From: a bacterium
GTDB lineage: Bacteria > Auribacterota > UBA3054
NCBI GenBank assembly: GCA_017616555.1
Contig: JAFZXZ010000017.1
Coordinates: forward strand, 26,586-90,585
DNA: 64,000 bases
Direction: 5' to 3'
The position numbers and the translations under genes are program-made. Positions within the stretch are counted from its first letter, which is position 1. Each line of letters begins with the position of its first letter. Below, piece by piece: positions 5,952 through 51,533 of the stretch. Under the pieces are notes generated by a model. It did no database searches. It had not been told where the DNA came from and worked only from the letters and a program-made list of their open reading frames with translations.

Positions 5952-5962
5952 ATATGTTCGGC

Positions 5963-6829: not shown

Positions 6830-6840
6830 AAGGAGAATTT

Positions 6841-7830: not shown

Positions 7831-7868
7831 TGATCTTTCCCAATAGGATAGATTAAGGAGAAATCAAG

Positions 7869-8750: not shown

Positions 8751-8754
8751 ACTT

Positions 8755-9255: not shown

Positions 9256-9256
9256 C

Positions 9257-11220: not shown

Positions 11221-11230
11221 GGAGAATATT

Positions 11231-13899: not shown

Positions 13900-13910
13900 A
13901 ATATCTCCCT

Positions 13911-19890: not shown

Positions 19891-23918
<4,028 letters not shown>

Positions 23919-29986: not shown

Positions 29987-30576
29987 GTCTTCTCAAGGAA
30001 TTTTTAAAAGGCATCTGGGAAAAGAACCCTGTATTGGTCCTTTCCTTGGGCTTGTGCCCGACTCTCGCCACGAGCGGAAGCATGCGCAACGCCGTAGGTA
30101 TGGGCCTTTCCGTCATCGCGGTTCTGACTTTCTCCAACATCATCATTTCCCTTATAAAGGGCTTCGTGCCTTCCAAGATCAGGATCCCCTGCTACATCAT
30201 CGTCATCGCTTTTTTGGTGACGGTCGTCGATATGCTGATTGCGGGCTTCGCACCGGAACTTAGCAAGGCCATCGGACTCTTCATAAAATTGATCGTGGTG
30301 AACTGCATCATCCTTGGCCGCGCGGAAGCTTTCGCCGCCAAGAACAATCCCCTTAGAGCCGCGCTCGACGGGCTTGGCATGGGGATAGGCTTCCTTATCG
30401 CCATCTCCATCATCGCGACCATCAGGGAAGTTTTGGGCGCCAACAAATGGTTCGGGCTGACGGTCGTTCCCGGCTGGGACCCCATCGGCATCATGATCCT
30501 CCCCGCCGGCGCGCTTTTAACTTTCGGCCTCGTCATGGCCGTGCGTAACGTCTTAGCCCAGAGGAGAGCCAAATGA
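29983..30576 (+). CDS. rnfE: Rnf subunit E
   Basis: LGLCPTLA, LIVVNCIILGRAEAFA. Confidence 0.92.
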   Translation: MSLLKEFLKGIWEKNPVLVLSLGLCPTLATSGSMRNAVGMGLSVIAVLTFSNIIISLIKGFVPSKIRIPCYIIVIAFLVTVVDMLIAGFAPELSKAIGLFIKLIVVNCIILGRAEAFAAKNNPLRAALDGLGMGIGFLIAISIIATIREVLGANKWFGLTVVPGWDPIGIMILPAGALLTFGLVMAVRNVLAQRRAK

Positions 30577-31247
30577 ACCTAGCCACTGCCTTTCTAGTCG
30601 TCATTTCCGTTGTTCTCGTCAACAACTTTATCTTCTCGCGCTTCCTTGGCTATTGCCCGTACATCGGCGTTTCCACGGAAAAGAAGTCGGCCCTCGGCAT
30701 GGGGCTCGCCGTCATCTTCGTCATGACGCTATCGAGCGTCGTCTGCTGGCTCGTCTATCACTTCTTCCTCTACCCCTCCGAAAGCAATCTCTTCTACAAG
30801 ATCTTCGGCGGAGGACAGGGAGTCGAATCTTTCGACCTGCGCTACCTGATGACGCTGGTCTTCATCCTTGTCATCGCGGCTCTCGTGCAGTTCGTGGAGA
30901 TGGTCATCCAGAAGATCGCCCCGCCCCTTTACGCGGCATTAGGCATCTACCTTCCTCTTATCACGACGAACTGCGCCGTCCTTGGCGTTACTATCCTCAA
31001 TATCGAGGGCGTCACCATCAACGGCACGGCCCTTGGCTACGGACACCCAATGAGCCTCCTCTTTGGCGTTTTGCAGGGGTTTGGCGCCGGATGCGGCTTC
31101 CTACTCGCCTTAATGCTGATGGCGGGCATAAGGGAGCGTCTGGCGCTCGTTGACATTCCCAAGCCTTTCAGGGGAATGCCCATCGCCTTCCTTACCGCCG
31201 CGCTTTTGGCCATAGCCTTCATGGGCTTCGCCGGCCTTGTTAAATAA
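30573..31247 (+). CDS. rnfA: Rnf subunit A
   Basis: FLGYCPYIGVS, IAALVQFVEM, LPLITTNCAVLG. Confidence 0.92.
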   Translation: MNLATAFLVVISVVLVNNFIFSRFLGYCPYIGVSTEKKSALGMGLAVIFVMTLSSVVCWLVYHFFLYPSESNLFYKIFGGGQGVESFDLRYLMTLVFILVIAALVQFVEMVIQKIAPPLYAALGIYLPLITTNCAVLGVTILNIEGVTINGTALGYGHPMSLLFGVLQGFGAGCGFLLALMLMAGIRERLALVDIPKPFRGMPIAFLTAALLAIAFMGFAGLVK

Positions 31248-31263
31248 AAACGAAGTTATAAAG

Positions 31264-32712
31264 ATGGAAAACGAAAAAGAAAAACCGGCTGCTCCAGTTG
31301 AAGAGCAGGAACAGAGAATAAAGACCAAGCACTCCCTAATACTTGGCAAAACGAAACTGAATTACACCGCCACGACCGGCACGCTCTTTCTTAGGGAGCA
31401 CAAGGACGAGAGCAAAATTAAGGCCAGGATCTTTTTCACCTACTACGAACTGGACGGCGTAAAAGACAAGGCCAAACGCCCCGTGATCTTCATCTACAAC
31501 GGCGGCCCTGGCAGTTCTTCCATCTGGCTGCACATGGGCGCCTTCGGCCCCAGGCGCTGCAAGATGAATGCCGACGGCTCCGCTCCCAAACCGCCTTTTG
31601 AGATCGTGGACAACAAGGAAACGCTCCTCACTGCCGCCGATCTGGTCTTCGTCGATCCTGTCAGCACGGGCTTCTCCCGCGCCGCCGACCTCGAGCACGA
31701 AGACGAATTTCACGGTCTTGAAAAAGACATCGAGGCCATGGGCGACTTCATCATGCGCTTCTGCAGCCAGCAGGGCCGCTGGATGTCCCCGAAGTACCTC
31801 CTGGGCGAAAGCTACGGCACGACGCGCTCCGCAGGGCTTGCCGGATACCTGAACAACGAGCAGGGCATGTACCTGAACGGCATCATCCTCGTCTCCTCCA
31901 TCCTTGATTTCGGCACCGCCCGTTTCGACTTCGGCAACGACCTCCCCTTCATTCTCTTCCTTCCGACCTACGCCGCCATCGCGCACTATCACAAGAAAGC
32001 CGGCGTTGGACAAAAGCAGGACGATTTCCTGGCCGAAGTGGAAAGCTTTGCGGTCAACGAATATCTCCGCGCGCTCTTTTTAGGCACTGAACTTCCTGAA
32101 GATGAAAAACAGGAAGTCGCGAAAAAGCTGGCCGCCTACACCGGACTCACAGAGCAGTTCGTGCTTGACTGCAACCTAAAGCCCAGTATCTGGCGCTTCA
32201 CCAAAAATCTCCTGAAAGAGGAAGGCTATTCCGTCGGCCGCTTCGACGGCAGGATCAAAGGCCGCGACGGCGAACGTGCCGGCGACCATCCCGAGACCGA
32301 CCCAAGCCATTCCGCCACGGCGGGCGTTTTCACGACCTGCTTCAACGACTACGTCAGGACTGAGCTGAACTACGATTCCGAAAAACTATATCTGGTCCTG
32401 ACCGGACGCGCCCATCCCTGGAAATTCGACCACGAGGGCAAATATGTCAACGTGAGCGACAGGCTGCGCCAGGCCATCTGCCGCAACACGGACCTGAAGG
32501 TCCTCATCGCCAACGGCTACTTCGACCTGGCTACGCCGTACTTCGCCACCTGGCACACGGTGAACCATATGCCCTTGACGCCGGAACTCAAGAAGAACAT
32601 CTCCCAGACCTACTACCAGGGCGGGCACATGATGTACACCATCGATTCTGAGCGCGAGAAACTAAAAAAGGACATCGTCAGCTTCATAGCCAAGACGACC
32701 AACAAGAAGTAA
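31264..32712 (+). CDS. Peptidase S10 serine carboxypeptidase
   Basis: YNGGPGSSS, DPVSTGFS, GESYG nucleophile, GGHMMY; ATG at 31264 preferred. Confidence 0.9.
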   Translation: MENEKEKPAAPVEEQEQRIKTKHSLILGKTKLNYTATTGTLFLREHKDESKIKARIFFTYYELDGVKDKAKRPVIFIYNGGPGSSSIWLHMGAFGPRRCKMNADGSAPKPPFEIVDNKETLLTAADLVFVDPVSTGFSRAADLEHEDEFHGLEKDIEAMGDFIMRFCSQQGRWMSPKYLLGESYGTTRSAGLAGYLNNEQGMYLNGIILVSSILDFGTARFDFGNDLPFILFLPTYAAIAHYHKKAGVGQKQDDFLAEVESFAVNEYLRALFLGTELPEDEKQEVAKKLAAYTGLTEQFVLDCNLKPSIWRFTKNLLKEEGYSVGRFDGRIKGRDGERAGDHPETDPSHSATAGVFTTCFNDYVRTELNYDSEKLYLVLTGRAHPWKFDHEGKYVNVSDRLRQAICRNTDLKVLIANGYFDLATPYFATWHTVNHMPLTPELKKNISQTYYQGGHMMYTIDSEREKLKKDIVSFIAKTTNKK

Positions 32713-37715: not shown

Positions 37716-40325
37716 TTATTTTCTGCGAAGCAAAAGCAAGGCCAGAGCGAGAAGTCCGAAGACAGCCGGCTCGGGGATAGTGTGGTCGCAGACCACCACG
37801 TTCTTGATGTAGGCGCCGGTATCGCGTTCTTCATCTGGGCCGTCGTTCACAGCTTCGATGTTAAAGGACGTGACGGGCTGGCCGTCGAAATCGGTGTTGA
37901 GCACGATCTCGCCGGTGAAGCAGTTAGTCTCATAATCACCCAGAGTCACCTGAGTGACGCAGGAATTGGCTTCATCAAGATCCATGGTGTAGGAGAAAGT
38001 CTGCCATTGACCGAGCGTGTTGTTTCTCATAAGCTCTTCAACCCCGTCTCCTCCGGCGGGTTTGTAGCCCAAAACAACTTCCTTAGTATCGCGATCCCTT
38101 CTTATGTAGAAAGGCAGGAATCCGTCTCCGGTATTCTGGCAGAACCTTAGATAGGTCGTGTTGTTGTTGTCCGGCAGGTTGACCAGGCAGCGGAAGGAAT
38201 AGTGGCTTCCGGCCGGGACGCCGGCGCTGACCTTAACCTTGCTCTGCTGATCGAAATAGAGGCACTGGATGCCGTCGAAGATCTTAAGAGAAGGCTCGAC
38301 TTCGTAGAAGTTCTCAACTTTCCAGCATTCCTGATTGTTGATTGAGCCGAGATGGAAAAGCTCGCCCTCGAATTCGGTCGTGTAGTACCAGCCGCCCACG
38401 CCGAAGGTCACGAGCTGGACGAAGGAGCCGGAATTGGTGCCATTGCTGGCCTCGTATTCGTATTTGAGCCTGGCGGTATAGTAACCGTCCTTCAGGCCCT
38501 TGCGGTCAAGCCTGTAAATAACCATGCCCTTGGTGCCGATGGTGCCTTTGTCGCGCGAGAGTTTCAAATTGTCCGCGTAATCGAGAACTTCAATGTTGAA
38601 CTTGTAGTTCTGGGCGCCGGCGTTCTCCAAAAGATTGGTGTAAACGCTCAGACCGCCCATGGAGACCGCTTTTTCGTAAGAGGGAATGGCGATCTTGGGA
38701 CGCTGGACTTCCGTGATGAGCAGATTGTCGATGGAAACGCCCACTCTGGAATCTTCGCCGCCGCCGCTGACACCGAATTTTTCAAAGTAGTGCATAGGCA
38801 CCACCCGGTCATTCATCCTCTTTCTCAGAGGCTTTTCCGTAAAGTTGGTGGTGAAGTCGCCGAAGGTGAATTCCGTGAGCTGCTGCATCCTGAAGTCCAT
38901 GGTGTAGGAGAAATCATGCCAGGTCTTGCCAGGCAGACCGTAGTCGCCGACCAGGGGATATCCTGAAGTGTCGTTGTAGGCCCAGAGCCTGACGTCGTTG
39001 CCTTCGGCGTGATACCAAAGGTCAAAGATGGCCGGATTGGCCCAATAGGTCGAGCGGAAATAGAAGCGGTCGGCTTCGTTTTCAAAATCCCAGCGGAATT
39101 TGCAGGAGACTTTGATAATGAGGTTGGAGGGCGTCCAGATGGGATACCAATAGCCGTCCCAGCCGCTGGCTTTTTCAAAGGTCGCGCACTGACCTTCCCA
39201 GGGATCGGATGGCGTGTTGACGTAAGCTTCGTTCGTTACGGGAGAATAATCGTTGCCTTCCTCTTTTCCGAACCAGCCCTGCTGACCGTGAAGCTCGCCA
39301 GGCTGCATATAGGGAGCCTCAAAATCTTCATAGTAGAAGACCAGGCCGGATCTGACGTTCAACGGAATGTCGAATTTTCCGTAAGGCGAGCAGTCGAAAG
39401 TGAGGATCGTGCGGTAGAAACCGTCGCCCATGACGCTGCGATTAAAAGTAACCTTGTGGCTCTTGGTTGTCTTGCAAACACCGGTGGACGCGAAGGTGAG
39501 CCACTCCGGATCGCCCAGGGCGGAAACGGTGTATTCGAATTCACCGCCGCCGTTGTTGGCTACGACGAATTCGCGGCTGGCGACGTTGCGGCCTATTAAA
39601 ACGGGATCAGTCGGCATGGAAGGGACCGGCGTGGTCAGCGCCTCGTAAGCGACCTCGATGTCGTCCACGGCGGTGACGTAACCGCTGCCCTGCGCCACAT
39701 AACCGCCGGCGAAGACAGCCGCGCCGATATGCGTGATCCTGAAGTTGGGAAGGATAACGTTTTCCGGAACGTTGGTGACGCCGTTGGCGATGACGTTGAC
39801 GAGGCGGCGAGAGGGATACTGGATATTGAATTCCAGCTCATTGTCCTTGTCTCCGCCGATGCCGCCAAACTCCATCTGAACTTTGTCGCTGTGGATGATG
39901 TAAAAAGTGCCGCCGTTGCGGTAAGCCCAGAGGGCGCGGCCGTTGGAGGTCCCGTTGCCGAACATGAAGCCGCTGATGTTGCTAAGGGAGCGGTGTTTCA
40001 AACGGATCCTCATAATGCCGGTCTCGGTGAACATGGTTTCCTCGGCCCCGGTGGGGATCCATACGCCGGAGTTGCCGGAGTTAAATCCGTCGGCGTCGTT
40101 CTTCGTCACGGTCAGACACTTTGACTCCATGACGTCGCTTTCCACTTTATAGGCGAAATTCGTCTGGTATTTGGTCTGCCAAACGCTCGCCGCTTCGCAT
40201 TGCGGCAGAAAATCGCCGGAGCTGTAACTTTCAAAGTCCTCCTTGAAGAAAACGCTCGGGTCCGCTTGAACATAAGCCGCGGATACAGCCAGCGCCGCTA
40301 AGAGAAAAATGATTCCTTTTTTCAT
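37716..40325 (-). CDS. PEP-CTERM surface protein, distant paralogue of the pair at 1-5739
   Basis: Signal peptide; FFKEDFESY, YYEDFE...GQQGW and YYTTEFE modules; C-terminus IPEPAVFGLLALALLLLRRK. Confidence 0.88.
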   Translation of the reverse strand: MKKGIIFLLAALAVSAAYVQADPSVFFKEDFESYSSGDFLPQCEAASVWQTKYQTNFAYKVESDVMESKCLTVTKNDADGFNSGNSGVWIPTGAEETMFTETGIMRIRLKHRSLSNISGFMFGNGTSNGRALWAYRNGGTFYIIHSDKVQMEFGGIGGDKDNELEFNIQYPSRRLVNVIANGVTNVPENVILPNFRITHIGAAVFAGGYVAQGSGYVTAVDDIEVAYEALTTPVPSMPTDPVLIGRNVASREFVVANNGGGEFEYTVSALGDPEWLTFASTGVCKTTKSHKVTFNRSVMGDGFYRTILTFDCSPYGKFDIPLNVRSGLVFYYEDFEAPYMQPGELHGQQGWFGKEEGNDYSPVTNEAYVNTPSDPWEGQCATFEKASGWDGYWYPIWTPSNLIIKVSCKFRWDFENEADRFYFRSTYWANPAIFDLWYHAEGNDVRLWAYNDTSGYPLVGDYGLPGKTWHDFSYTMDFRMQQLTEFTFGDFTTNFTEKPLRKRMNDRVVPMHYFEKFGVSGGGEDSRVGVSIDNLLITEVQRPKIAIPSYEKAVSMGGLSVYTNLLENAGAQNYKFNIEVLDYADNLKLSRDKGTIGTKGMVIYRLDRKGLKDGYYTARLKYEYEASNGTNSGSFVQLVTFGVGGWYYTTEFEGELFHLGSINNQECWKVENFYEVEPSLKIFDGIQCLYFDQQSKVKVSAGVPAGSHYSFRCLVNLPDNNNTTYLRFCQNTGDGFLPFYIRRDRDTKEVVLGYKPAGGDGVEELMRNNTLGQWQTFSYTMDLDEANSCVTQVTLGDYETNCFTGEIVLNTDFDGQPVTSFNIEAVNDGPDEERDTGAYIKNVVVCDHTIPEPAVFGLLALALLLLRRK

Positions 40326-40411
40326 AAATCACCTCGTGTTGGTTTGAATTCTAATTGTCAAATATATATTGTAGCAAATTTAACGCTTTCATATTTGGTA
40401 AAATAATTTTC

Positions 40412-40855
40412 ATGGAGCACAAAGATTACATGCAGCTGACTGTCAAGGAAGCCAAAGAGGCCGCCGCTATTGGCGAAGTCCCGGTCGGGTGCGTCATTGC
40501 GGACGAAGCCGGGAACGTCATTGCTTCCGCCCACAACCTTACGGAAAAAGGCCAGGACGCCACCGCCCACGCGGAGCTTTTGGCCATAAAGGAAGCCCAG
40601 AAAAAATTGGGCCGCCGCCTCACTGGCTGCACGCTTTACGTTACCCTTGAGCCCTGCCCCATGTGCTCCGGCGCCATTCTGCTCAGCAGGATCAAAACTG
40701 TCGTTTTCGGAGCGCGCGACTGGGAAAGAGGCGCCCTGCTTTCCAACGCCAACCTCGCCAATACCTGGGCGGGCGGCAAAGTTGAAGTGTTGGAAGGGTT
40801 TTGCTCGCTTGAATGCGAGACGCTTCTCAAGGATTTCTTTTCTGCCCGCAGATAA
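40412..40855 (+). CDS. tadA: tRNA adenosine(34) deaminase-like nucleoside deaminase
   Basis: GEVPVG, TAHAE, TLEPCPMC, LLKDFF; ATG at 40412. Confidence 0.85.
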   Translation: MEHKDYMQLTVKEAKEAAAIGEVPVGCVIADEAGNVIASAHNLTEKGQDATAHAELLAIKEAQKKLGRRLTGCTLYVTLEPCPMCSGAILLSRIKTVVFGARDWERGALLSNANLANTWAGGKVEVLEGFCSLECETLLKDFFSARR

Positions 40856-40871: not shown

Positions 40872-40913
40872 CAATATATTGTTAAAAAAAGGCCCTTTTG
40901 ATACAATATATTG
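40872..40913 (+). promoter_or_regulatory. Sigma70-type promoter of the SMC operon with two CAATATATTG palindromes
   Basis: TTGTTA (40879)-17 bp-TACAAT (40902) with TG extension; palindromes at 40872-40881 and 40904-40913. Confidence 0.6.
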
Positions 40914-40939: not shown

Positions 40940-42481
40940 ATGGACAACAATATAATTGAACAGATCGATCCCGCGCCGCAGCCTGATCTTTTTCAGGCTG
41001 TGGCGCCGGAACCCACTTTTCTGGATCTTCTTCCAGCCAGTCACTGCGCTTTTCTAAGTTCAGAGCGGCGGTGGTATTACGCCACCATTCTCTATTTTCT
41101 CTTTCTGCGCCGCCAGGCCCATGAAGTCGAAAAGTATCACAACGATATCTACGACGCCGTCCAATCGCTCCTGGAAACTGCCGGCCCTTACAGCCAGCAG
41201 ACTTTCCGAGCCGACATGGAGCAGCTCATGCTCTGGGGCAACGTCGAGCGCCGCATCGAACCGAAAAGACTGCAGCACATCGCGGACAGGAGAGTGCAGA
41301 AATTCCTCTACCGCCTGACCGACCATACCAGGGCGCTATTGGAGAGTCTGTCGCTCGTACGCTCCGTGGAGAATCTGAACGCCGTCACGCTTGACCAGGA
41401 CCATCTTCTGGATCTTCAGGAACTCGTCGAAAAGATCGGCCTTTGCCTTTCCCGCGGCGAGAATTTGACGGATGCGGAATTGAGAAGGCTCGCCAGGAAC
41501 ATCTCTGAATTAGACAACCGCTGCCGCCTCGTCGCCAACGAGATCAGCGACTTCGGCGCCAGGATCGCGACTTTCAACATCGAGCCTTTCCAGCTCGAGA
41601 CTCTGCCGCAAATAATCGACCGCCTGGCCAGGTACGTTGACCAATATCTGCAGCGCGTGGCGAACCTGACGCCTCCCGTTTACAACGCGCTCTCGCGCTG
41701 GAATTCCCAGCAGGGGCTCGCCATTTTAAGGAACGCCAGGGAAGCGATGAGGCTGCACGCCGAGAACAATCCTCTGGCAGGCGCCCTGGCTGAGCAGGAC
41801 GACCCCATCGAACAGATGCTGGCGAGGCTTATCCCCTTCTTCGCTCCCGAAGGCGTCTTCCAGCTTCTCTGCCTCCGTGTCAACGAGCAGGTCAGGATAC
41901 TTATCAGCCGCATCAGGCAGTACCTCGACGACATCAGGCACCGCAACATCAGGATAAGGATCCTCCGCCGCCGCGCCAACGAATGCATCGGCGCTCCAGA
42001 TGAAGCGCTGCCGGAGATCAAAGCTTTCATAAGGGAGCTCTTCTCCGTCGGACAAATTTATAACGACATGGGCGGCGGCACTCCGGAAGACCGCGTTCCC
42101 CCGCCGAGGCCCAATTACTGGCGCCGCCGCGCCATAAGGCCGCCTTTCCGCAACGCCGCCATCATCGCCAAAACAGGCTCGGCAAGCGCCAGCCGCGAAC
42201 TGGAAAAAGCGAAGGCCAAACGCCTGAGGGACTTCATGCTCCTGAAAGCTTATCCAATGGGACAGCGCGGCCCCATCCATTTGTTCTCCCTTAAGAACAT
42301 GGACGACATCAGGAACTACATGGATTCCGTCAAGTTCTACAAGATCGGAAGGAAGCACGGCATCAGACTTGGGTACACCTTAAAGCAGCCTGACAAAAAC
42401 GCGCCGCAGGCGGAATTCAAAGGCGGGAAATGGTATTTCTCCTCCCCCGACTACACCGTAGATTTTCAGGAAAACAACTAA
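40940..42481 (+). CDS. JetA/MksF-like kleisin (DUF2397, TIGR02677-like)
   Basis: YATILYF...DMEQLMLWGNV...KFLYRLT resembles the DUF2397 N-terminus; first gene of a kleisin-KITE-SMC triad. Confidence 0.75.
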   Translation: MDNNIIEQIDPAPQPDLFQAVAPEPTFLDLLPASHCAFLSSERRWYYATILYFLFLRRQAHEVEKYHNDIYDAVQSLLETAGPYSQQTFRADMEQLMLWGNVERRIEPKRLQHIADRRVQKFLYRLTDHTRALLESLSLVRSVENLNAVTLDQDHLLDLQELVEKIGLCLSRGENLTDAELRRLARNISELDNRCRLVANEISDFGARIATFNIEPFQLETLPQIIDRLARYVDQYLQRVANLTPPVYNALSRWNSQQGLAILRNAREAMRLHAENNPLAGALAEQDDPIEQMLARLIPFFAPEGVFQLLCLRVNEQVRILISRIRQYLDDIRHRNIRIRILRRRANECIGAPDEALPEIKAFIRELFSVGQIYNDMGGGTPEDRVPPPRPNYWRRRAIRPPFRNAAIIAKTGSASASRELEKAKAKRLRDFMLLKAYPMGQRGPIHLFSLKNMDDIRNYMDSVKFYKIGRKHGIRLGYTLKQPDKNAPQAEFKGGKWYFSSPDYTVDFQENN

Positions 42482-42487
42482 AAGACT

Positions 42488-43228
42488 ATGAACGAACAAT
42501 ACTTTGAAAACGAGACGGAGAACTACTCCGACCAGATCGATCAGCTGAACATCCACAGCGTCAGGGCGCTTCTGAACGTGCTTTTGGAATCGCCCTTCTT
42601 CTACCAGACCGACGACCCGGACCTCTTCGCCTACCTGAGATTGAACCAGGAAGCCGTCGGCCACTTCTTCATGCGCTACTTCGGCTGGGAGCTCTACGTT
42701 GACCGCCAGGCTGCAAGAATAATAAAGCCGCAGCTCTACAACAATTCCTTGAAGCCGTCGCAAAGGGACATGTTCGACCTGACGAGAAGGGACGAATGCT
42801 CGGTCTTCATGCTGCTTTTGGAATTCTACGAAAAGCTCCTCAGGGACTTCAACTCCAATTACGACGACGATAAAAGGCTGCGCTTCCTCATCTCGGACTT
42901 CGTCCAGTACTGCTTCAACCGCTTCAACGAGGAGCTTGAGGACGGCGAATCGAGTGAGAAAGCGATAGTGGACGCCTGCCGCACGCTCTTCCCGAAGCTG
43001 ATAAAATACCGCTTCATCGAGCAGAAAGAAAAAGCCGAGGTCGGAAAAGACGAGCGCCTGCCGGAAGGCTTAGAGCAGCAGGTCATGTACGAATTTCTCC
43101 CCGGCATCCACTGCTACCGTCCGGACGTTCTCACCTTCAAGGAGATCGCCAGGCTCTACTCCAAGCAGGACGGAACTAAAGAAGAAGCTGACTTAAAGGA
43201 AGAAGAAACTGAACAGGAAAATTTTTAA
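42488..43228 (+). CDS. JetB/MksE-like KITE subunit (DUF2398, TIGR02678-like)
   Basis: LLESPFF...DPDLFAYLR...FFMRYFGWEL...ARIIK...LTRRDE; size and position. Confidence 0.72.
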   Translation: MNEQYFENETENYSDQIDQLNIHSVRALLNVLLESPFFYQTDDPDLFAYLRLNQEAVGHFFMRYFGWELYVDRQAARIIKPQLYNNSLKPSQRDMFDLTRRDECSVFMLLLEFYEKLLRDFNSNYDDDKRLRFLISDFVQYCFNRFNEELEDGESSEKAIVDACRTLFPKLIKYRFIEQKEKAEVGKDERLPEGLEQQVMYEFLPGIHCYRPDVLTFKEIARLYSKQDGTKEEADLKEEETEQENF

Positions 43229-43232
43229 ATAG

Positions 43233-46200
43233 GTGAATACGATGAACGGAAACCACAGTTGGGAAAACGCTTTGAATTTGAGGGCATTGCGCCTTATCAA
43301 TTTCCATAACTTCGCCGACGAGACCATAAAGATCCACGGCAGCCTCTTTCTCATGGGCAACAACGGCACCGGCAAGACGACCATAATAGACGCGGTGCAA
43401 TTAGCCCTGACCGGCGGACAAAGGCTGATGTTCAACGCCGCTACCGTAATAGGCGGGCGCTCGGAATCCGGCCGCAGCCTTTCCGGCGTTCTGCTTCAGC
43501 ACAACTTCGAGACCGGCAAAGTTGGCCGTGCCGGCGGCGCAGTCGGCTACGTCGCCCTCGAACTGCTCGATCCCAAGAGCCAGAACCCCGTGACGATAGG
43601 CGTCGGCGCCTTCGCCGAGAATCTCGACCAGCGTCCGGAAATGTGGGGCTTCATTGTTGACGCTCCCCTCTCCGACGTCCAGCTCACCGTTAGGGTGAAC
43701 GACGTTTCCGAAGCGCCCCAGTACCGCCCCGTGGACAAGAAGGAACTGCCAGGCTTGGTCGGCAAGACGCGAGTTTACGACATCGGGCGCTACCGCACGC
43801 AGGTCGCGAACCGCTTCTTCGGCGGACGCTCGAATTTTGAGCGCGTGGCCGATCTCTTAAAGGCCAGCAAATCCTACAAGGACCTGGTCGTCAAAGCCCG
43901 CGACTTCGAAGGCCTCTTCGCGGCCCTCTTGCCCGCTCCCGACCACCAGGTCTTCCAGGACATCGAAACGACGCTGCAGAACCTGGAGACCATCGAGAGC
44001 GACATCAAAGGCCTTAAGAAAGAAGCCGAGCTGCTCGATGAGGCGAACAAGACCGTAGCCAAGATCGCTTCCTCCAAAGCGAGGATCGAGGAATGCCGCT
44101 ACCTGAAGCTAAGGAACTCCCTAAACAACCTCGCCTCGGAATTAAAGAGCCAGGAAAGAGCCGTCGCCGTCAACCGCCAGAACCAGATCGACGCCAAGAA
44201 CAAACTTGACGACCTCCTGCCGAAACTCGAGCAGACAAGGACGACCTTGGCTGAAGTGAGGACCGGCACCGGCGCCAAGCTCTGGGAAGAAGCGGAACGC
44301 CTTGAAAAAGAACTGGCGAAACTGAAAGAGGATTCCGTCACCTTCAAGGAAGAAACGGAAAAAGAATTGCAGAAGCAGGCTACGCTTGAAAAGGACAAGG
44401 CGAACGCCAACGCCGACGTTTTGGAAGCCATCCGCTCCCAGAACGCCATAATAAAGACCATATCTGTTCCGGTCTGCCCCGAGACAGTGAAAGAAGCCTC
44501 TGACCATCTTTCCAAAACGATCGCCTCTTTGAAGAAAGCTTACAAGAACGCCGAGGAAACGACCGAGTGCGACACCGAAGCGCTCTCCCGCTCCCAGAAG
44601 CTGGCAGTAAGGGCCGCCGACAACCTGCTGCAGGCCTTAAGAGACGAAAAGCAGACTCTCTCTCTGCGACTTTCCGACTTGGAAAGGGAAGGCAAAGTGA
44701 CGGCCGCCGTCCCGACCATGGAAGTGATGCCCAGAGTCATCGGCTACAGGGATTTTCTGGACGCGCTGAAGAGAGAAGGCCTGAAAGCCGAGCCGCTCTT
44801 TTCTATGCTCGATTTCGCGCCCAATACGCCGCCCCAGCTCATGAACCTGATCGAGTCTTTCCTTGGCGACGAATGGCTCGGCACCATCATCCCCGAAGAG
44901 GAGGATCTCGAAGAAGTCATAAGGTTGGCCGGCAAAGCCAATCCCGGGATCAGGATAGCCGACACTTCCCGCCTCATGGCCACGAAGAGCCCGAAACCCC
45001 TGGACAATTCCATCGCCAAATATCTGAAGACCGCGAACGGCTTCGCCCGCTGCTTTGTTGACACTCAGCTCGGCAAGATCAGGATCTGCGACCTGGCCGC
45101 CACTCCGGACGGCGACTGGCTGTCCCGAGAAGGCCTTGTCAAAGAGCGCGCCGTTTACCGCTACATCAAGCGTGAAGCGGAAGGACTCCTTGGCAAAGCG
45201 CGCCGCCAGGCCGCCCAGGAAAAACTCCTGACCGAACAGAAGATCAAAAATAAAGAGCTCAGCAATATCGCCGACGGCCTCAGGAAAAAGCAAGCCTCCC
45301 TCAGCGAAACGATTGAAACGATCTACAAGATAAAGATCCAGCTGGAAGAAAAAGTCTCGCCATGGCTCATCGCCCACCGCCTCACCCAGAGAGCCGCCAA
45401 CGACAAGCTCCTCAATGAAATGAAGGAAAGAGTCGAGAAAGCCCAGAGCCTGCAGGCCAAATCCCAGCGCCAGATCGTGAGGATCACCAAGCAGATCAAG
45501 GAGCTAAGAGAGGACAAGCAGTTCCAGACCACCGGCGACATCCACAAACAGCTAGACATCCTAAAAAAGCGCCTGACGGAAGAAGAGAAGGAACGCGAGG
45601 AGCTCGTCGAAATGATCGCCCGCTACAAGGAACGCGTCTCCATTCTGGAAGCCCAGAACGCCAAGACCAGGCTCAGCTACAACGAAGCCGTGAACCAGGC
45701 GGCCGACAAGAAGAAACTTCTGGAAGACAGCCTCTCTGAAGAATACCCCGACCTCGAGAGCTACCTCAAGGAGACCTACGGCGCAGAGAACGTCCAGGAA
45801 GGAAGATTGGCCGAGATAATAAAGATCCAGGAGCGCGTAATAAACCGCGAGATCGGAAGCTTAGTTGGCAGCGACGACTCCCGCTCCAAGGGCGGACTCA
45901 TCCACCATGAGCTGCTCTGGACGAAATATGCCTTCACCTACCGCGAGGACATCAACGACCTCATCGACCAGGACGGCCGCGACCTCAAGACCATAACCTT
46001 GAAACTGAACGACCAGCTCACCCAGCTCGAGAATTCCGTCAGCGACAACAGAAGAAAACTTCTCGAGAAAACGATCCTGGGCGATCTCTCCAACCAGTAC
46101 ACCAGGGACCTCTACAGGTTGAAAGAGAGTTTGGAAGCCGTCAACCTCATGCTGGAAGGCCTTAGTTTCGGCCGCTCCCAGTACCGCTTCACCCAGAAGA

Positions 46201-47042
46201 TCAAGAATGAATACCGTCAGGTTTACGGCATCGTCAGAAGAGCCGGCGACATCGACGAAGACAGCCAGGAGCAGCTGAAAGCCTTCTTCGAATCTAAGAT
46301 CGGCGAACTGCGCATGCAGCCAGACGGCTCTCTCCCCTCCTTCCTTGACTACCGCCACTGGTTCGACTACCAGCTGCATGTGAAAGTCGTAGGCACCGAG
46401 GGCGAAGGCATCGAGTTGACGAACGACATCCGCCGCCTTGGTTCCGGCGGCGAACAGGCCGTGCCGAACTATCTTCTCATAATGGCCATGAGCGCTTTGC
46501 TCTACAACCAGATCAACGCCAGGATCCGCTTCCTCCTCTTCGACGAAGCCTTCTACGGCATCGACGCGGAAAGAAGAGAAGAATTGCTGCGCTTCGCCAA
46601 CAGACTCGGCCTCTCCCTTGTCATCGCCACTCCGGAAATGGACGGCGTCACGGAAGCCATGCGCGAATCCACCACGCTCCTCCTTGAAAAGAACGCCAAC
46701 AACGAGATCTTCATCGGCAACTTCGTCTGGGAATCCCAGGAAGGCCAGCAAATGGATATCTTCAACCAGGAAGCGAACGAAGAGGAGACCTACACCATCG
46801 GCGTGAAGAAAGAGAAAACTCCCGAACCGGAACCCGAGCCCGAACCCGAGCCCGAACCGGAACCCGAACCGAAGCCCGCTCCCAAGAAGACGCTTGCCAA
46901 ACCAAAACCGGCAAAGAAACCCGCACCCAAAAAAGCGCCCGCCAAAGCGGTCAAAAAGCCCGCTCCGAAAAAGCCCGCCAAACCCGCTCCCAAAGCGAAG
47001 CCGAAAGCCAAAGCTAAAGCCAAACCCAAAGGCAAAAAATAA
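43233..47042 (+). CDS. JetC/MksB-like SMC ATPase with Pro/Glu linker and Lys/Ala/Pro-rich tail
   Basis: LINFHNF, Walker A GNNGTGKTT, long coiled coils around a hinge region, LDYRHWF, signature GSGGE, Walker B LLFDEAF. Confidence 0.88.
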   Translation: MNTMNGNHSWENALNLRALRLINFHNFADETIKIHGSLFLMGNNGTGKTTIIDAVQLALTGGQRLMFNAATVIGGRSESGRSLSGVLLQHNFETGKVGRAGGAVGYVALELLDPKSQNPVTIGVGAFAENLDQRPEMWGFIVDAPLSDVQLTVRVNDVSEAPQYRPVDKKELPGLVGKTRVYDIGRYRTQVANRFFGGRSNFERVADLLKASKSYKDLVVKARDFEGLFAALLPAPDHQVFQDIETTLQNLETIESDIKGLKKEAELLDEANKTVAKIASSKARIEECRYLKLRNSLNNLASELKSQERAVAVNRQNQIDAKNKLDDLLPKLEQTRTTLAEVRTGTGAKLWEEAERLEKELAKLKEDSVTFKEETEKELQKQATLEKDKANANADVLEAIRSQNAIIKTISVPVCPETVKEASDHLSKTIASLKKAYKNAEETTECDTEALSRSQKLAVRAADNLLQALRDEKQTLSLRLSDLEREGKVTAAVPTMEVMPRVIGYRDFLDALKREGLKAEPLFSMLDFAPNTPPQLMNLIESFLGDEWLGTIIPEEEDLEEVIRLAGKANPGIRIADTSRLMATKSPKPLDNSIAKYLKTANGFARCFVDTQLGKIRICDLAATPDGDWLSREGLVKERAVYRYIKREAEGLLGKARRQAAQEKLLTEQKIKNKELSNIADGLRKKQASLSETIETIYKIKIQLEEKVSPWLIAHRLTQRAANDKLLNEMKERVEKAQSLQAKSQRQIVRITKQIKELREDKQFQTTGDIHKQLDILKKRLTEEEKEREELVEMIARYKERVSILEAQNAKTRLSYNEAVNQAADKKKLLEDSLSEEYPDLESYLKETYGAENVQEGRLAEIIKIQERVINREIGSLVGSDDSRSKGGLIHHELLWTKYAFTYREDINDLIDQDGRDLKTITLKLNDQLTQLENSVSDNRRKLLEKTILGDLSNQYTRDLYRLKESLEAVNLMLEGLSFGRSQYRFTQKIKNEYRQVYGIVRRAGDIDEDSQEQLKAFFESKIGELRMQPDGSLPSFLDYRHWFDYQLHVKVVGTEGEGIELTNDIRRLGSGGEQAVPNYLLIMAMSALLYNQINARIRFLLFDEAFYGIDAERREELLRFANRLGLSLVIATPEMDGVTEAMRESTTLLLEKNANNEIFIGNFVWESQEGQQMDIFNQEANEEETYTIGVKKEKTPEPEPEPEPEPEPEPEPKPAPKKTLAKPKPAKKPAPKKAPAKAVKKPAPKKPAKPAPKAKPKAKAKAKPKGKK
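46821..47039 (+). repeat. (PE)n repeat followed by KPAPKK/KAKP repeats
   Basis: cccgaaccggaacccgag repeats, then Lys/Pro/Ala codon repeats. Confidence 0.85.
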
Positions 47043-47440
47043 TGGATCCCAAGACCGCGCAAGAACTCGTTGATCAAGCCATTTCCGCCCGTGAAAAAGC
47101 CTACGCCCCCTACTCCAAATTTCAGGTGGGCGCCGCCATCCTCACCAAGGACGGAAAGACCTACCAAGGCTGCAACATCGAGAACGCCTCATACGGGGCC
47201 ACCATCTGCGCGGAACGCGCCGCCGTTTGCAACATGATAGCGAACGGCGGCACGGATCCAATAGCCATCGCCATCTGCTACAACGCGGAGGAATTCGCCG
47301 TCCCCTGCGGCATCTGCCGCCAGGTGCTCTCGGAGTTCTCCCCTAAGGGCGACCTCACGATCCTCATGGCCAAGACCGACGGCACATACCGGGAGACTAC
47401 GCTTTCCGCCCTTCTCCCCGCTTCCTTCAAGCTGAATTGA
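47042..47440 (+). CDS. cdd: Cytidine deaminase (homotetrameric type)
   Basis: AYAPYSKFQVGAA, GCNIENASY, CAER, PCGICRQ; TAATG overlap with the SMC gene. Confidence 0.93.
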   Translation: MDPKTAQELVDQAISAREKAYAPYSKFQVGAAILTKDGKTYQGCNIENASYGATICAERAAVCNMIANGGTDPIAIAICYNAEEFAVPCGICRQVLSEFSPKGDLTILMAKTDGTYRETTLSALLPASFKLN

Positions 47441-47983: not shown

Positions 47984-48265
47984 TCATTCCGGATACCGAC
48001 GGGATGTATGCAGGAAGGAAACGACTATAAGCTCATTCCCATCCACCATGTACACTATGATGTAAGGCGTATTGAGCACCAAAAACTCATAGGTGCCATT
48101 TACCCTGCCTGGGTGACCTATGCGGGGTTCCGAAGCCAGCAGATCGAGAGTCTGCATAATGCGAACTATGACGTCTCTGGCCGCCGAGCGGTTATCCGCG
48201 AAGATGTGCTCGTAGCCGTTTTTCAGATCTTCCGCGGCTAATTTTGTGTACTTAATCTTAAGCAT
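47984..48265 (-). CDS. RelE/ParE family toxin
   Basis: YTKLAAEDL, DNRSAA, PRIGHPGRVNGTYE, PYIIVY, LHTSR; TGATG overlap with the antitoxin. Confidence 0.88.
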   Translation of the reverse strand: MLKIKYTKLAAEDLKNGYEHIFADNRSAARDVIVRIMQTLDLLASEPRIGHPGRVNGTYEFLVLNTPYIIVYMVDGNELIVVSFLHTSRRYPE

Positions 48266-48495
48266 CAGCGCATCCATTTCTCCAAAATGTCACGCATCTC
48301 TTTGTCCGTGGCGAACTGTTTTTTCTTCGCCTGCTTCACGCCCTCCTCAATATGGGCGACCTGCCAGTCCTGCAAAGAGAGATAGTAATTGATCGCTTCG
48401 TTGATAATGAAGCTTCGGTCGCGCTTTTGGGCCGCTGCCAGCTGGTCGAGTTTCTTCTTCGTTTCCTCTTCGGTCCTGAACGATATGGTATTCAT
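48265..48495 (-). CDS. CopG/RHH antitoxin
   Basis: MNTISFRTEEETKKKLDQLA...RDRSFIINEAI; start 48495 lies downstream of its promoter. Confidence 0.88.
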   Translation of the reverse strand: MNTISFRTEEETKKKLDQLAAAQKRDRSFIINEAINYYLSLQDWQVAHIEEGVKQAKKKQFATDKEMRDILEKWMR

Positions 48496-48517
48496 AATAT
48501 TATCCTGTATTTTTTTG

Positions 48518-48557
48518 TAATACGCTGTATTATACAATATCGCTCGAACCTTAGCAA
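48518..48557 (-). promoter_or_regulatory. TA operon promoter with palindromic operator
   Basis: TTGCTA (48557-48552)-17 bp-TATAAT (48534-48529); TAATAC-GCT-GTATTA palindrome 48518-48532 overlaps the -10. Confidence 0.7.
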
Positions 48558-48567
48558 GCCAAGCGGC

Positions 48568-48602
48568 AAAAAAAGCGACCGACGACTTTTCGTCGCCGGT
48601 CG
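48568..48602 (-). terminator. Rho-independent terminator
   Basis: CGACCGGCGACG-AAAA-GTCGTCGGTCG stem followed by T7 on the minus strand. Confidence 0.7.
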
Positions 48603-48632
48603 AAAGCTGCAGAGCTAGTAACCTAGAATAGA

Positions 48633-49562
48633 TTATTCTGTTTCTTGCTGTTTTATTCTGTAATAGTTGGTATACCAATCGTTGGCATGACCGGAACGCC
48701 ATTGGGATACCACTTCGGTAGATTTCTTCCACTGGCCATTTTTGCCAAAGGTCGCAACATATTTGGTTTTAATACCGCCTTTGATTTCATGTTCATAGGT
48801 GGAATCTTCATTAAAGTTTTGTTCAACAATGACTTTGTTGTCTTGGACGGTAATCTTCCTGTCATAGGTGTATTTGGCTTGTCCCCAGAACAAAAGTTCT
48901 TCACGTTTGGGGAGTATTTTATGAAAAGGAAGAGCGGCGCTTCTCATTATTCTACCATAAACAATGGCCTCTGTATCTGAAACAAAGTTGGTATAGTATG
49001 CCCAGTCGTCCTGAGCCCATAAATGCCCCGGATATTGATTGGCAATGCGCGCGAACCACTCTGTATTCGGCATATACGGAAGCACCGGCCGAGCATCTTT
49101 CTTGCGGGGCTTAAAGGTATAGGACGCCACAGATTCTTCCGCAATGTTCGTCGGGCAGGTTTCCATCAAGGTTTGTGCTTTCCACTCATCTGACGTGCTT
49201 TGTTCTTTACGATGACGGCTGACCACCTTTAATGTCTGTTGATTGTTTTCCAAAGGATTGGTCGTGCCTGTCTTACCCCAATAATTCTTGCTTTGTGCCC
49301 ACACAACATCATTGGTCGTCTTACCTTTCTTTGTGTATAGATACGACTTTTCAACAGAGCCGTCTTCACGGGGTGTTTCTGTTTCCTTCTTGTATTTTTC
49401 TTTATAATTGTCCGTTGTCTCTGCGTTTAAGGACATTTCTGTTGCGCGTTCCTGTGTGGACCAGAATCCGTTGCTCAATACATCATGAACGGTAATGCCC
49501 AAGACCTCACCGACAATCAAAAGAACACCCAACGCCGATGAATATAACCATTTTTCATTCAT
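48633..49562 (-). CDS. Hypothetical exported protein, AT-richer than neighbours
   Basis: AGGAG RBS, N-terminal hydrophobic segment, own promoter and terminator; no family recognised. Confidence 0.65.
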   Translation of the reverse strand: MNEKWLYSSALGVLLIVGEVLGITVHDVLSNGFWSTQERATEMSLNAETTDNYKEKYKKETETPREDGSVEKSYLYTKKGKTTNDVVWAQSKNYWGKTGTTNPLENNQQTLKVVSRHRKEQSTSDEWKAQTLMETCPTNIAEESVASYTFKPRKKDARPVLPYMPNTEWFARIANQYPGHLWAQDDWAYYTNFVSDTEAIVYGRIMRSAALPFHKILPKREELLFWGQAKYTYDRKITVQDNKVIVEQNFNEDSTYEHEIKGGIKTKYVATFGKNGQWKKSTEVVSQWRSGHANDWYTNYYRIKQQETE

Positions 49563-49633
49563 TGAATTCTCCTAAAATTCAATTAAAAAATTCTCTTGCG
49601 CAATGAATTGCGTAATTCCGTAATTTTTCTATT

Positions 49634-49660
49634 ATTTTAATCAAAAAAAAAAAAAAGCAA
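49634..49660 (-). promoter_or_regulatory. Promoter with a T14 homopolymer in the -35/-10 spacer
   Basis: TTGCTT (49660-49655)-15 bp-TAAAAT (49639-49634); A14 at 49643-49656 on the plus strand. Confidence 0.55.
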
Positions 49661-49961
49661 GTCTTGGAAAAGCTTTTATCCATGCGGAATTGCAGAGATT
49701 GCGCTTGCAATCGCCTTTAAAACAAGTTGTTCGCAAGCGCGTGTTTTTAAGATTTGATTTTCAAGTTCGTACTTAAGCAGACGGTTTAAAATGTGAAACG
49801 GTCAGATCGTTTAATTATATCGAGAAGCTGTTTTTGTCAGTTTTTCCTACGCTTTGTCCCCTGTTTCCCTACGGGTCGTTTCCGGTTTGGCTGGCAGATT
49901 AATTTATTGAAATATCCTAATATATGCGCGTAGTTTTAAAATCAAAAAGAGCGAACTTAAT

Positions 49962-51347
49962 ATGACTAACGAAGAACTTGAAAACATGGTTGCCAAACGC
50001 GAGAGACATGATCTCGAGCTGAAGGAGTCGTTCGGAACGGAAACGATTGAAACAGTCTGCGCCTTCGCCAACGCCAGCGGAGGATTAATAATAATCGGCA
50101 TAGACGACAAGGGTGAGCCGGCGAAGAAAAATCTGCGAGTTGAATCTTTGCGGGATTTTGAGAACAAAATATCCACCGCTACGGAACCATCCGTCGCGGT
50201 GGACGTGGAAGAAAACTTATACCGCGGACATAAGGTCGTCGTTATCCGGGGGCAGGAAAACCCGCTCAAGCCCGTGGCGACAAGAGGAAGATGCTTTATA
50301 AGGAAAGGCAGCGTGAACCATCAAATGACGCCAACGGAAATAGCGGAATGCCACATAAAGTCGACAGGCGGCAGCATGGACGCCATAATCATCCCGGGAG
50401 TTGCAAAAGAAGACATCGACATGGAAGCCGTCCGCGATTACATGAAAAGAGCAACGGCGAAAGGCCGCAGAACTTTCACCATGGAAGAAGATCCCTGGGA
50501 CGTGCTGACCAAATTGGAATTGGTAAAGTCCGAAACCGAGATCACGCTAGCAGCCTATTTGCTTTTTGCGAAAGATCCGCAGCTGAAGTTTTCCCAAGCG
50601 GTAATACATGCCGGTGCGTTCAAAGCCAACGGAGCCGTCATTACTGACAGCCGGGATATGCAGGGACACATCCAGGATCAAATCGATGAGACGATTTCCT
50701 TTATTCAGAAAAACATCCATTGCGCCCTTATCGTTCCTCCCGGAAGAGTAGATCATGTTCCAGTCTGGGATTATCCTATAGAAGCAGTACGCGAAACCGT
50801 AACAAACGCCGTTTGCCACAGAGACTACGGCTCGCCTCATGACATACAGATCAAAATACTCGATAACGATCTTGTTGTTTCAAGCCCAGGGGAACTGCCA
50901 TTCGATATGTCCCTGGAAACGCTCATGGATCCAAACCACTCATCCAAACCACGCAATAAACTGATCGCAAAAATATTTTTCGACATGGGTATCATAGAGC
51001 AATACGGAAGAGGCATCACCAAGATCAAGGAAGAATGCGAAAAAAACAGCAACCCTTATCCGGAATGGGACAGCCGCCTGGGTACGTTCACAACGGTTTA
51101 TAGAACGCGAACTGCCAAATCCGATCATATAAAAACCAAGACGATAAAAATCATAACTCCTTTTCAAAAGGAAATCATGCTTTTCTTGAGCCAAAATCCT
51201 TCAGCATCAAGAAAACAACTTATTGAGAAGTTTCCTAGCACGACGGAAGGTGTGTTAAAGAATAATCTTAAACGCTTGAAAGAACTGGGTATTATAAGGC
51301 ATATTGGGCCAAGATTTGGAGGGAAGTGGGAAGTTTTCTTTGATTAA
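49962..51347 (+). CDS. AlbA_2 (Schlafen-like) / HATPase_c_4 / C-terminal wHTH protein
   Basis: ELKES, TVCAFANASGGLIIIGIDD, YPIEAVRETVTNAVCHRDY, PRNKLIA, IEQYGRG, RHIGPRFGGKWEV. Confidence 0.88.
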   Translation: MTNEELENMVAKRERHDLELKESFGTETIETVCAFANASGGLIIIGIDDKGEPAKKNLRVESLRDFENKISTATEPSVAVDVEENLYRGHKVVVIRGQENPLKPVATRGRCFIRKGSVNHQMTPTEIAECHIKSTGGSMDAIIIPGVAKEDIDMEAVRDYMKRATAKGRRTFTMEEDPWDVLTKLELVKSETEITLAAYLLFAKDPQLKFSQAVIHAGAFKANGAVITDSRDMQGHIQDQIDETISFIQKNIHCALIVPPGRVDHVPVWDYPIEAVRETVTNAVCHRDYGSPHDIQIKILDNDLVVSSPGELPFDMSLETLMDPNHSSKPRNKLIAKIFFDMGIIEQYGRGITKIKEECEKNSNPYPEWDSRLGTFTTVYRTRTAKSDHIKTKTIKIITPFQKEIMLFLSQNPSASRKQLIEKFPSTTEGVLKNNLKRLKELGIIRHIGPRFGGKWEVFFD

Positions 51348-51350
51348 ATA

Positions 51351-51533
51351 ATCAATTCCAATAATTATCCTAACGCTTTTATCGTATCTTCCCTTTTAGA
51401 AATGTGTTATATAGAAAGATTCTCTTGTGATTTGTCCCAACGGCCATCCTAACACATTCTCCTATAACTTTTTATTAAGAAAGCATTTACATAGGCTATT
51501 GTTTTTTATAATTATCCTAACAATTGTCCTAAC
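51351..51533. repeat. Array of three tandem pairs of 12-bp repeats (consensus AATTRTCCTAAC) at about 80-bp period
   Basis: Pairs at 51351/51363, 51430/51442 and 51510/51522. Confidence 0.6.

Follow-up and report, generated by a model that had tools for sequence, protein, structure and literature searches.

A nuclease-less JetABC operon of Wadjet ancestry as a putative condensin in a class of Auribacterota

We analysed a window of 64,000 nucleotides (contig JAFZXZ010000017.1, positions 26,586 to 90,585) from a metagenome-assembled genome (MAG; assembly GCA_017616555.1, 83.9% complete, 1.66 Mb) of a bacterium of the GTDB lineage Auribacterota; UBA3054. The region at window positions 40940–47042 encodes the three subunits of an SMC (structural maintenance of chromosomes) complex related to the Wadjet plasmid-restriction systems, here called jetA (kleisin), jetB (KITE) and jetC (SMC-family ATPase), and has no gene for the JetD nuclease. 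The features of the locus are the following, the complex first and its flanks after it:

40940–42481, + strand: jetA-like gene for a kleisin of the DUF2397 type (PF09660, 64.8 bits; PADLOC JetA2; AlphaFold2 model)
42488–43228, + strand: jetB-like gene for a KITE consisting of a single unit of two winged-helix domains (PF09661, 36 bits; AlphaFold2 model)
43233–47042, + strand: jetC-like gene for an SMC-family ATPase of 1269 aa (AAA_29, SbcC_Walker_B; PADLOC JetC1)
46815–47039, + strand: low-complexity C-terminal tail of JetC, residues 1195–1269 (sequence and charge profile)
40355–40855, + strand: tadA-like gene for a tRNA adenosine deaminase, upstream flank outside the complex (NCBIfam PRK10860 TadA, 1.8e-32, below the cut-off; Pfam MafB19-deam/dCMP_cyt_deam_1)
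40879–40907, + strand: candidate sigma-70-like promoter with an extended −10 TG, in the 85-base gap between tadA and jetA (consensus scan, 9/12 matches)
47042–47440, + strand: cdd, cytidine deaminase, downstream flank in the window's genus only (NCBIfam PRK05578, 150.4 bits against a cut-off of 74)

The jetABC operon and its products

The open reading frames (ORFs) of jetA, jetB and jetC encode proteins of 513, 246 and 1269 aa, and are separated by gaps of 6 bases (jetA–jetB) and 4 bases (jetB–jetC). The initial annotation, made from the sequence alone, had described an operon of a kleisin-like, a KITE-like and an intact SMC ATPase gene between tadA and cdd, written in the codon style of the host, and we confirm this description: the genes stand where it placed them, and their codon use (GC content at third codon positions, GC3, 0.73–0.76; relative synonymous codon usage, RSCU, distance 0.07–0.12) is like that of the neighbouring housekeeping genes.

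Both small subunits fall into families of SMC-complex partners. The 513-aa protein matches Pfam DUF2397 (64.8 bits against a cut-off of 28.5) and PADLOC JetA2 (1.9e-13), and the 246-aa protein matches Pfam DUF2398 (PF09661; 36 bits against a cut-off of 26.9, spanning profile positions 2–81 of 363 alone) and PADLOC JetB2 (9.1e-11). AlphaFold2 models of the two proteins, built on alignments of relatives, reached a predicted local distance difference test (pLDDT) score of 75 each. The best PDB matches of the JetB model are KITEs, led by nvJetB (9qe0_D, 5.7e-6) and followed by ecJetB, paJetB and MukE, and its fold matches also include the Nse1/3 chains of Smc5/6; those of the JetA model are kleisins, with nvJetA (9qe0_E, 3.7e-10) ahead of MukF. 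Kleisin and KITE subunits are thus encoded beside the ATPase, as is the case for SMC–kleisin–KITE complexes. Across the families of the class, identity is 45–50% for JetA and 57–59% for JetB.

JetB is predicted to form a homodimer through residues 14–94, its first winged helix. The homodimer model scored 0.58, against 0.02 for the best control, a mark attained by 20 of 30 proteins with a solved same-chain pair and by 1 of 23 with a solved single chain. Separate runs shared at least 72% of their contacts, with a partner pLDDT of at least 73. The score may nevertheless reflect only the likeness of JetB to KITE dimers that have been solved. A JetA-like part also forms the C-terminal portion of five proteins of ~950–970 aa (P0135, P0142, P0144, P0160 and P0163), where ~480 additional N-terminal residues precede it; PADLOC did not recognise this additional part as JetD in any of the three proteins tested.

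The ATPase carries Pfam AAA_29 and SbcC_Walker_B as its N- and C-terminal halves, in the manner of SbcC, Rad50 and MukB, and PADLOC ranks its JetC1 model (7.4e-69) ahead of its JetC2 model (3.3e-37). The Walker A motif GNNGTGKT, the signature LGSGGEQ and the Walker B motif LLFDEAF are invariant in all seven class members aligned. From the composition profile, JetC would consist of an N-terminal head, an arm of ~300 aa, a hinge-like middle (~500–640), a second arm and a C-terminal head. It is the sole match to the JetC profile in its own genome, which holds no paralogue. PDB sequence searches with JetC, JetA and JetB retrieved no SMC-complex chain, the JetC profile matching only PtuA and Rad50 at Walker A, and therefore give no link by sequence alone to the solved Wadjet or MukBEF complexes; in the ESM Atlas, this family meets only generic clusters of the SbcC/TIGR02680 type.

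The C-terminal tail of JetC begins with an acidic (EP)9 run and continues as a basic stretch rich in K, P and A, such that the last 89 residues of the protein hold 27 K, 23 P and 15 A. The initial annotation had counted a basic, DNA-binding tail among the acquisitions of the complex. The tail is real in the JetC of the window, but it is a trait of one genus and not of the domesticated clade: it occurs in both genus members aligned and in none of five members of other families, and is therefore a late addition that had no part in domestication. We take it to resemble the EP/KP spacer of TonB and lysine-rich tails of the histone H1 type, and would guess that it may add non-specific affinity for DNA in the window's genus.

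A single-KITE Wadjet branch and the JetD nuclease

The initial annotation had derived the complex from Wadjet type II, and here our results differ. Type II, as represented by nvJET-II of Neobacillus vireti (PDB 9QE0/9QE1), has by Pfam the same kleisin family, DUF2397, and a KITE related to DUF2398, and its nvJetA and nvJetB are the best structural matches of both models. nvJET-II is described as a plasmid-cleaving system that has JetD, an SMC protein of larger size and, as its KITE, a tandem of four winged helices and 388 aa (bioRxiv 10.1101/2025.03.10.642339). In contrast, the KITE of our operon is a single unit of 246 aa that is predicted to be dimeric, where type II has a tandem of ~390 aa; JetC without its tail measures ~1200 aa, as against ~1350–1390 aa; and JetD is absent. 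The scores against the type II models of NCBIfam are far below their cut-offs (TIGR02677, 40.6 against 165.85 bits; TIGR02678, 29.2 against 124.65; TIGR02680, 71.4 against 462.85), the kleisin thus lying above the cut-off of Pfam DUF2397 and far below that of TIGR02677. By subunit size and family score, the trio falls outside canonical type II.

The gene order of the trio recurs in single-KITE JetABCD operons (loci L024–L046, from MAGs of Desulfobulbales, Victivallales, Acidobacteriota and others), which also share the sizes of its subunits (JetA ~510–560, JetB ~216–260 and JetC ~1150–1250 aa) at a JetC identity of 26–30%. The closest of them, L024 and L044, show 43–47% JetB identity by tblastn. 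Like defence systems, these operons have a scattered distribution that takes in several phyla, and the clade formed by the class differs from them in having no JetD. At E≤1e-5, a JetB profile retrieved 498 proteins; the 120 with the best scores are all 201–252 aa long and, where named by NCBI, are called 'DUF2398 family protein'. A JetA scan of 1.84 billion representative proteins shows a gap, with top matches of 52% and 44% identity and all others at or below 34%. From the comparison with type II and the JetB profile, we place the trio as a nuclease-less offshoot of a sizeable single-KITE DUF2397/DUF2398 branch that normally carries JetD.

The association of this branch with JetD was established on 23 distant full-length JetC relatives of 26–30% identity, from MAGs labelled Victivallales, Lentisphaerae, Akkermansia, Kiritimatiellae, Desulfobulbales, Acidobacteriota and others. 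We aligned 13 JetD proteins that PADLOC had identified beside these distant jetC genes into a cognate JetD profile, and a six-frame search with it located JetD immediately downstream of jetC in 19 of these 23 loci. Two of the four loci without a match end at jetC; the other two, L036 and L038, are both Victivallales and are without JetD, and this pair, by its position as sister to JetD-bearing operons, is a second, independent loss of the nuclease. Two further observations concern individual loci of this set: in L044 (8001–11557), jetC is split over several frames by frameshifts or assembly errors, and in L043 (8339–10231) there is only a weak C-terminal match to JetD (2.4e-23), and the open frame that holds this match overlaps the end of jetC.

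A Wadjet system of any type requires a JetD/MksG Toprim nuclease encoded with JetABC, and we found none here. The initial annotation had seen no Toprim nuclease gene in the window, which holds for the rest of the genome as well: the Pfam families PF09664, PF09983 and PF11796 gave no match in this 83.9%-complete genome (in which a single absence is no proof), nor did the cognate profile in a six-frame translation, even at E≤10. The same annotation had named a jetD homologue elsewhere in the genome or in close relatives, together with a patchy distribution, as the mark of an ordinary or decaying Wadjet. The cognate profile, which matched four of five whole genomes used as positive controls, matched none of the 18 genomes of the class. 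PF09664 likewise had no match across 41 relatives, with a control that rose above the cut-off in no reference genome. Around seven class loci (L013–L019), none of the flanking ORFs scanned matched a JetD family of Pfam, and the DNA that follows jetC in the class loci is assembled and codes for other genes. In one class genome (G014), a 187-aa fragment of a DUF1016/YhcG PDDEXK nuclease lies between jetB and jetC (L019:4075–4638, − strand); it has no match in the other loci, and a weak partial match in the window's genome is on a contig different from that of the operon.

Distribution and evolution in the class

The class and its order comprise the same 18 species genomes, which belong to five families and are all MAGs, 64–93% complete. 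JetC was found in 17 of them, and the one genome without it, 80% complete, is also without JetA and LigA; LigA itself was found in 16. JetA and JetB stand beside JetC in all six loci of other families scanned against Pfam (L013–L016, L018 and L019), and in two loci of the window's genus ORFs of the same sizes, alignable with JetA and JetB, take these places. All families have the three genes in the order A-B-C, while each family has wholly different neighbours, among them sigma-54 regulators, glycoside hydrolases, DUF1846 and LolA. With the trio in 17/18 genomes, the distribution is not the patchy one that would have pointed to an ordinary Wadjet.

The initial annotation had also called for a check on the absence of smc-scpAB. 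The window's genome has no match to the Smc hinge (PF06470), ScpA or ScpB, and each of the three was found in none of the 18 class genomes by the same searches, the controls of which matched 9–11 of 14 reference genomes. In the rest of the phylum (genomes at least 85% complete), the Smc hinge is present in 47 of 52 and this JetC in none of 52, and ScpB was present in 19 of 23 other phylum genomes of a first sample. No second KITE of the MukE/MksE type was found in the class: sub-threshold matches to DUF4194 in 5 of the 18 genomes are all jetB itself. The window's genome does encode a separate 559-aa ORF that matches SMC_N above cut-off, which we read from its size as RecN-like.

The JetC tree comprises 35 rows, 13 of them from the class, and these 13 form one clade with a Shimodaira–Hasegawa-like approximate likelihood ratio test (SH-aLRT) support of 100, and their grouping into families matches the taxonomy. 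The sister of this clade is a pair of JetD-bearing operons, L024 and L026 (support 98, LG+G4), and a quick search under a posterior mean site frequency (PMSF) mixture model with 22 rows gave the same result (class 100, sister 99). The 35-row tree leaves out partial sequences (L008 and L009), loci whose places were already filled (L013–L015, L017 and L020), loci equal in length and score to rows included (L021–L023) and the fragmented L044. The stem of the class clade is long, at 0.99–1.83 changes per site. Identity to the window's copies points independently to the same sister group, since L024 stands highest with 43% in JetB and 28% in JetA (other outgroups 27–35% and 21–24%). By tblastn, JetB of L044 reaches 47%, the highest among JetD-bearing relatives.

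The operon diverges within the class at the pace of a housekeeping gene. Identity to the window's copy between families is 50–52% for JetC and 50–54% for LigA, the between-family means are 52.4% and 54.5%, and the identities of the two proteins are correlated over 55 genome pairs (r 0.96, the pairs being kin and not independent). Within the genus, the ratio of non-synonymous to synonymous substitution rates (dN/dS) is 0.06–0.13 for jetA, 0.10–0.14 for jetB and 0.08–0.11 for jetC, with 0.19–0.22 for the adjacent cdd. Judged by these rates, JetABC evolves as a core gene set under purifying selection.

The flanks named by the initial annotation, tadA and cdd, are indeed present here, but are specific to the genus, and other families have different neighbours. 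Locus L020, from the same genus, has a 150-aa ORF at the position of tadA and a 132-aa ORF of cdd size after jetC, each recognised by size or place alone, while a cdd-like deaminase follows jetC in L017 by Pfam; in other families tadA is not at this position and cdd does not follow jetC. The stop codon of jetC and the start codon of cdd overlap in the window as TAATG, and jetC is translationally coupled to cdd in this genus. The candidate promoter upstream of jetA is weak evidence, as the scan of the region returned 5 sites where 2.4 were expected.

Several other features lie in the wider window. Divergent from tadA, an 869-aa ORF (37716–40325, − strand) without a Pfam or NCBIfam match is conserved in the genus with a dN/dS of 0.13–0.17. 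Just downstream of cdd and a GNAT gene, a low-GC island at 48000–51500 (41–45%, against 54% for the genome), with a GC3 of 0.47–0.52 and deviant codon use, is probably acquired DNA; it encodes a ribbon–helix–helix (RHH) protein, a 309-aa ORF that belongs to no family and a Schlafen AlbA_2/HATPase_c_4 protein. Further upstream, at 5954–15692 and 28365–32712, the housekeeping context comprises a Bat-like cluster (a MoxR-type ATPase, BatA- and BatB-like von Willebrand factor A proteins and a BatC-like tetratricopeptide repeat protein) and an Rnf operon (RnfD, G, E and A). A switch in GC skew near 40 kb was considered in connection with replication, a reading that we dropped as the switch falls together with a change of coding strand.

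A putative condensin and competing explanations

We consider it likely that JetABC is a Wadjet-derived condensin that replaced Smc-ScpAB in the class. The suggestion of the initial annotation that the complex had been domesticated as a chromosome organiser gains from all three lines of evidence set out above, namely the absence of JetD, the class-wide distribution and the absence of smc-scpAB. Subject to the incompleteness of MAGs, JetABC is in this class a nuclease-less sole SMC complex in genomes without Smc-ScpAB, which is the situation of MukBEF. Solely from its distribution and mode of evolution, we infer that it extrudes loops, acts on the chromosome and has taken over the function of Smc-ScpAB.

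The likeness to MukBEF extends to architecture and inheritance. MukBEF is likewise a complex of a kleisin, a KITE dimer and a MukB-like ATPase without a nuclease, and is likewise kept vertically, in gamma-proteobacteria, in a lineage without Smc-ScpAB; the KITE homodimer predicted here would form through the N-terminal winged helix, and the fold matches of our models include MukE and MukF. By family membership, however, the complex is not MukBEF: MukB_N scored 18.9 bits against a cut-off of 23 and DUF4194 16.7 against 32.7, the JetA and JetB proteins had no MukE or MukF match in Pfam at E≤0.01, and the kleisin is a DUF2397 protein. The complex also occurs in another phylum, and its nearest relative is a different Wadjet branch. 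MksBEF of Pseudomonas aeruginosa is also without JetD and is related to type I. MksBEF is reported to coexist with Smc-ScpAB in a back-up role and to be scattered over the tree (bioRxiv 10.1101/2025.03.10.642339), whereas the complex described here is class-wide, with no Smc-ScpAB found in 18 genomes. Its kleisin and KITE are also of DUF2397 and DUF2398 rather than DUF3375 and DUF4194, and MksE scores in relatives reach 20–21.6 bits, below the cut-off of 27.

The course of events that we propose begins with a four-gene Wadjet-like plasmid-restriction system, the JetD Toprim nuclease of which would have been lost in the ancestor of the class. From then on, JetABC would have passed down vertically, as a core set of genes, in a lineage without Smc-ScpAB. 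In the present-day complex, a JetC dimer bridged by the kleisin would load onto chromosomal DNA, hydrolyse ATP and extrude loops, and this extrusion would end without cleavage as no nuclease is present; it may compact sister chromosomes and individualise them, the role that MukBEF has in gamma-proteobacteria. For MukBEF and MksBEF, the hypothesis that a Wadjet can become a segregation module by losing JetD has already been put forward (PMC10586767; bioRxiv 10.1101/2025.03.10.642339; bioRxiv 10.1101/2022.10.04.510915).

A number of observations count against a condensin role or soften the evidence for it. The class genomes are all incomplete MAGs, and no absence is proven in any single one of them. 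Family f11 of the same phylum, represented by genomes 91–99% complete (G023, G032, G040, G047 and G048), is without a recognisable SMC complex: the Smc hinge, this JetC and an SbcC_Walker_B-type ATPase were each found in 0 of 5 genomes, and ScpB and DUF4194 each in 0 of 3. The loss of Smc therefore needs no replacement by JetABC, and the loss of the one and the fixation of the other could be unrelated. Three genomes of Lentisphaerae/Victivallales with related systems also gave no Smc hinge match, two with JetD present (G041 and G042) and one without a JetD match (G044), negatives that are limited by a completeness not established for these genomes. Likewise, a published Hi-C study reports that Akkermansia muciniphila and two Bacteroidetes have no condensin of a known kind (PMC10197239). 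The sister relation in the JetC tree joins two long branches, for which the tree tool issued a warning. Lastly, the similarity of operon and flank is discordant within the genus. Over window positions 21750–47440, LigA (96%) and the 869-aa gene (92.5%) are both closest to G006 (L017/L055), whereas jetABC is closest to G002 (L020/L058; 93–97%) and shares merely 84–86% with G006; by these identities, there is a breakpoint of recombination or of assembly mixing near the start of the operon.

Among the alternatives to a condensin, the one that survives best, though we regard it as unlikely, is an immune or surveillance module directed against plasmids and extrachromosomal circles. Such a module would act through an unlinked, unrecognised effector, which corresponds to the sensor with an effector in trans that the initial annotation had offered as an alternative, or by silencing or entrapment without cutting, as Smc5/6 does with viral DNA, and would have become fixed by being cheap and useful. 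The nearest relatives of the complex are four-gene JetABCD operons, with JetD adjoining jetC in most of the distant loci, and JetABC of Wadjet alone is described as sensing the shape and size of DNA (PMC10586767). The state of family f11 means, moreover, that a condensin role is not forced. Defence systems are, however, described in the same source as sporadic and highly divergent or fast-evolving (PMC10586767), and JetABC is present in 17/18 genomes, forms one clade and shows LigA-like divergence with a dN/dS near 0.1. No conserved neighbour across the five families is a candidate effector; the PDDEXK fragment between jetB and jetC would suit an immune role, but it is confined to one locus, apart from the weak partial match on another contig of the window's genome.

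We think it quite improbable that JetABC has a different task on chromosomal DNA, for instance in repair, recombination or the decatenation that is linked to replication, as Smc5/6 or RecN have, with bulk organisation left to other factors, as it must be in family f11. The behaviour of a core gene would suit any essential role on DNA, f11 manages without an SMC complex, and the kleisin–KITE architecture is common to Smc5/6, the Nse1/3 chains of which are among the fold matches. On the other hand, the complementary pattern is specifically with Smc-ScpAB, the genome retains its separate SMC_N ORF of 559 aa, and loop extrusion along whole DNA molecules is the mode of action of every characterised relative among MukBEF, MksBEF and Wadjet.

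An artefact of incomplete or chimeric MAGs, with jetD and smc-scpAB unbinned or unassembled, or a decaying remnant of a Wadjet, is very improbable: completeness is 64–93%, one class genome is without the operon and similarity within the genus is discordant, but jetD, smc, scpA and scpB would each have been missed in 18/18 genomes in which jetC was found 17 times and LigA 16 times, the DNA directly after jetC, where relatives have jetD, is assembled here with other genes, and the ORFs are intact, with invariant ATPase motifs and a dN/dS near 0.1. Decay of the operon was rejected on its intact frames and low dN/dS.

If JetABC is a condensin, it has a bearing on how often such complexes have arisen. 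On balance, we favour an independent origin of a bacterial condensin apart from that of MukBEF, in a class outside the Proteobacteria and by descent, without the nuclease, from a previously unclassified single-KITE Wadjet branch, to which one genus added an extension resembling a histone tail. In our literature searches, which covered publications exclusive of their supplements, this clade was not reported, and neither was any single-KITE DUF2397/DUF2398 complex that acts as a condensin. MukBEF has been proposed to descend from a Wadjet-like ancestor (PMC10586767; bioRxiv 10.1101/2022.10.04.510915). In the papers cited, the Wadjet origin of MukBEF and MksBEF is a hypothesis built on structural likeness, since the MukBEF transition lies far back and has no close sisters with JetD.

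The same transition has apparently been repeated here, from a different Wadjet branch and within a clade that is small and well delimited. Relatives with the nuclease still exist at 43–47% JetB identity, which makes the question directly testable. The class is further evidence that several lineages, family f11 among them, can dispense with Smc-ScpAB or replace it, and would, if our reading is correct, represent a natural experiment on the changes that turn a plasmid-cutting SMC complex into an organiser of the chromosome.

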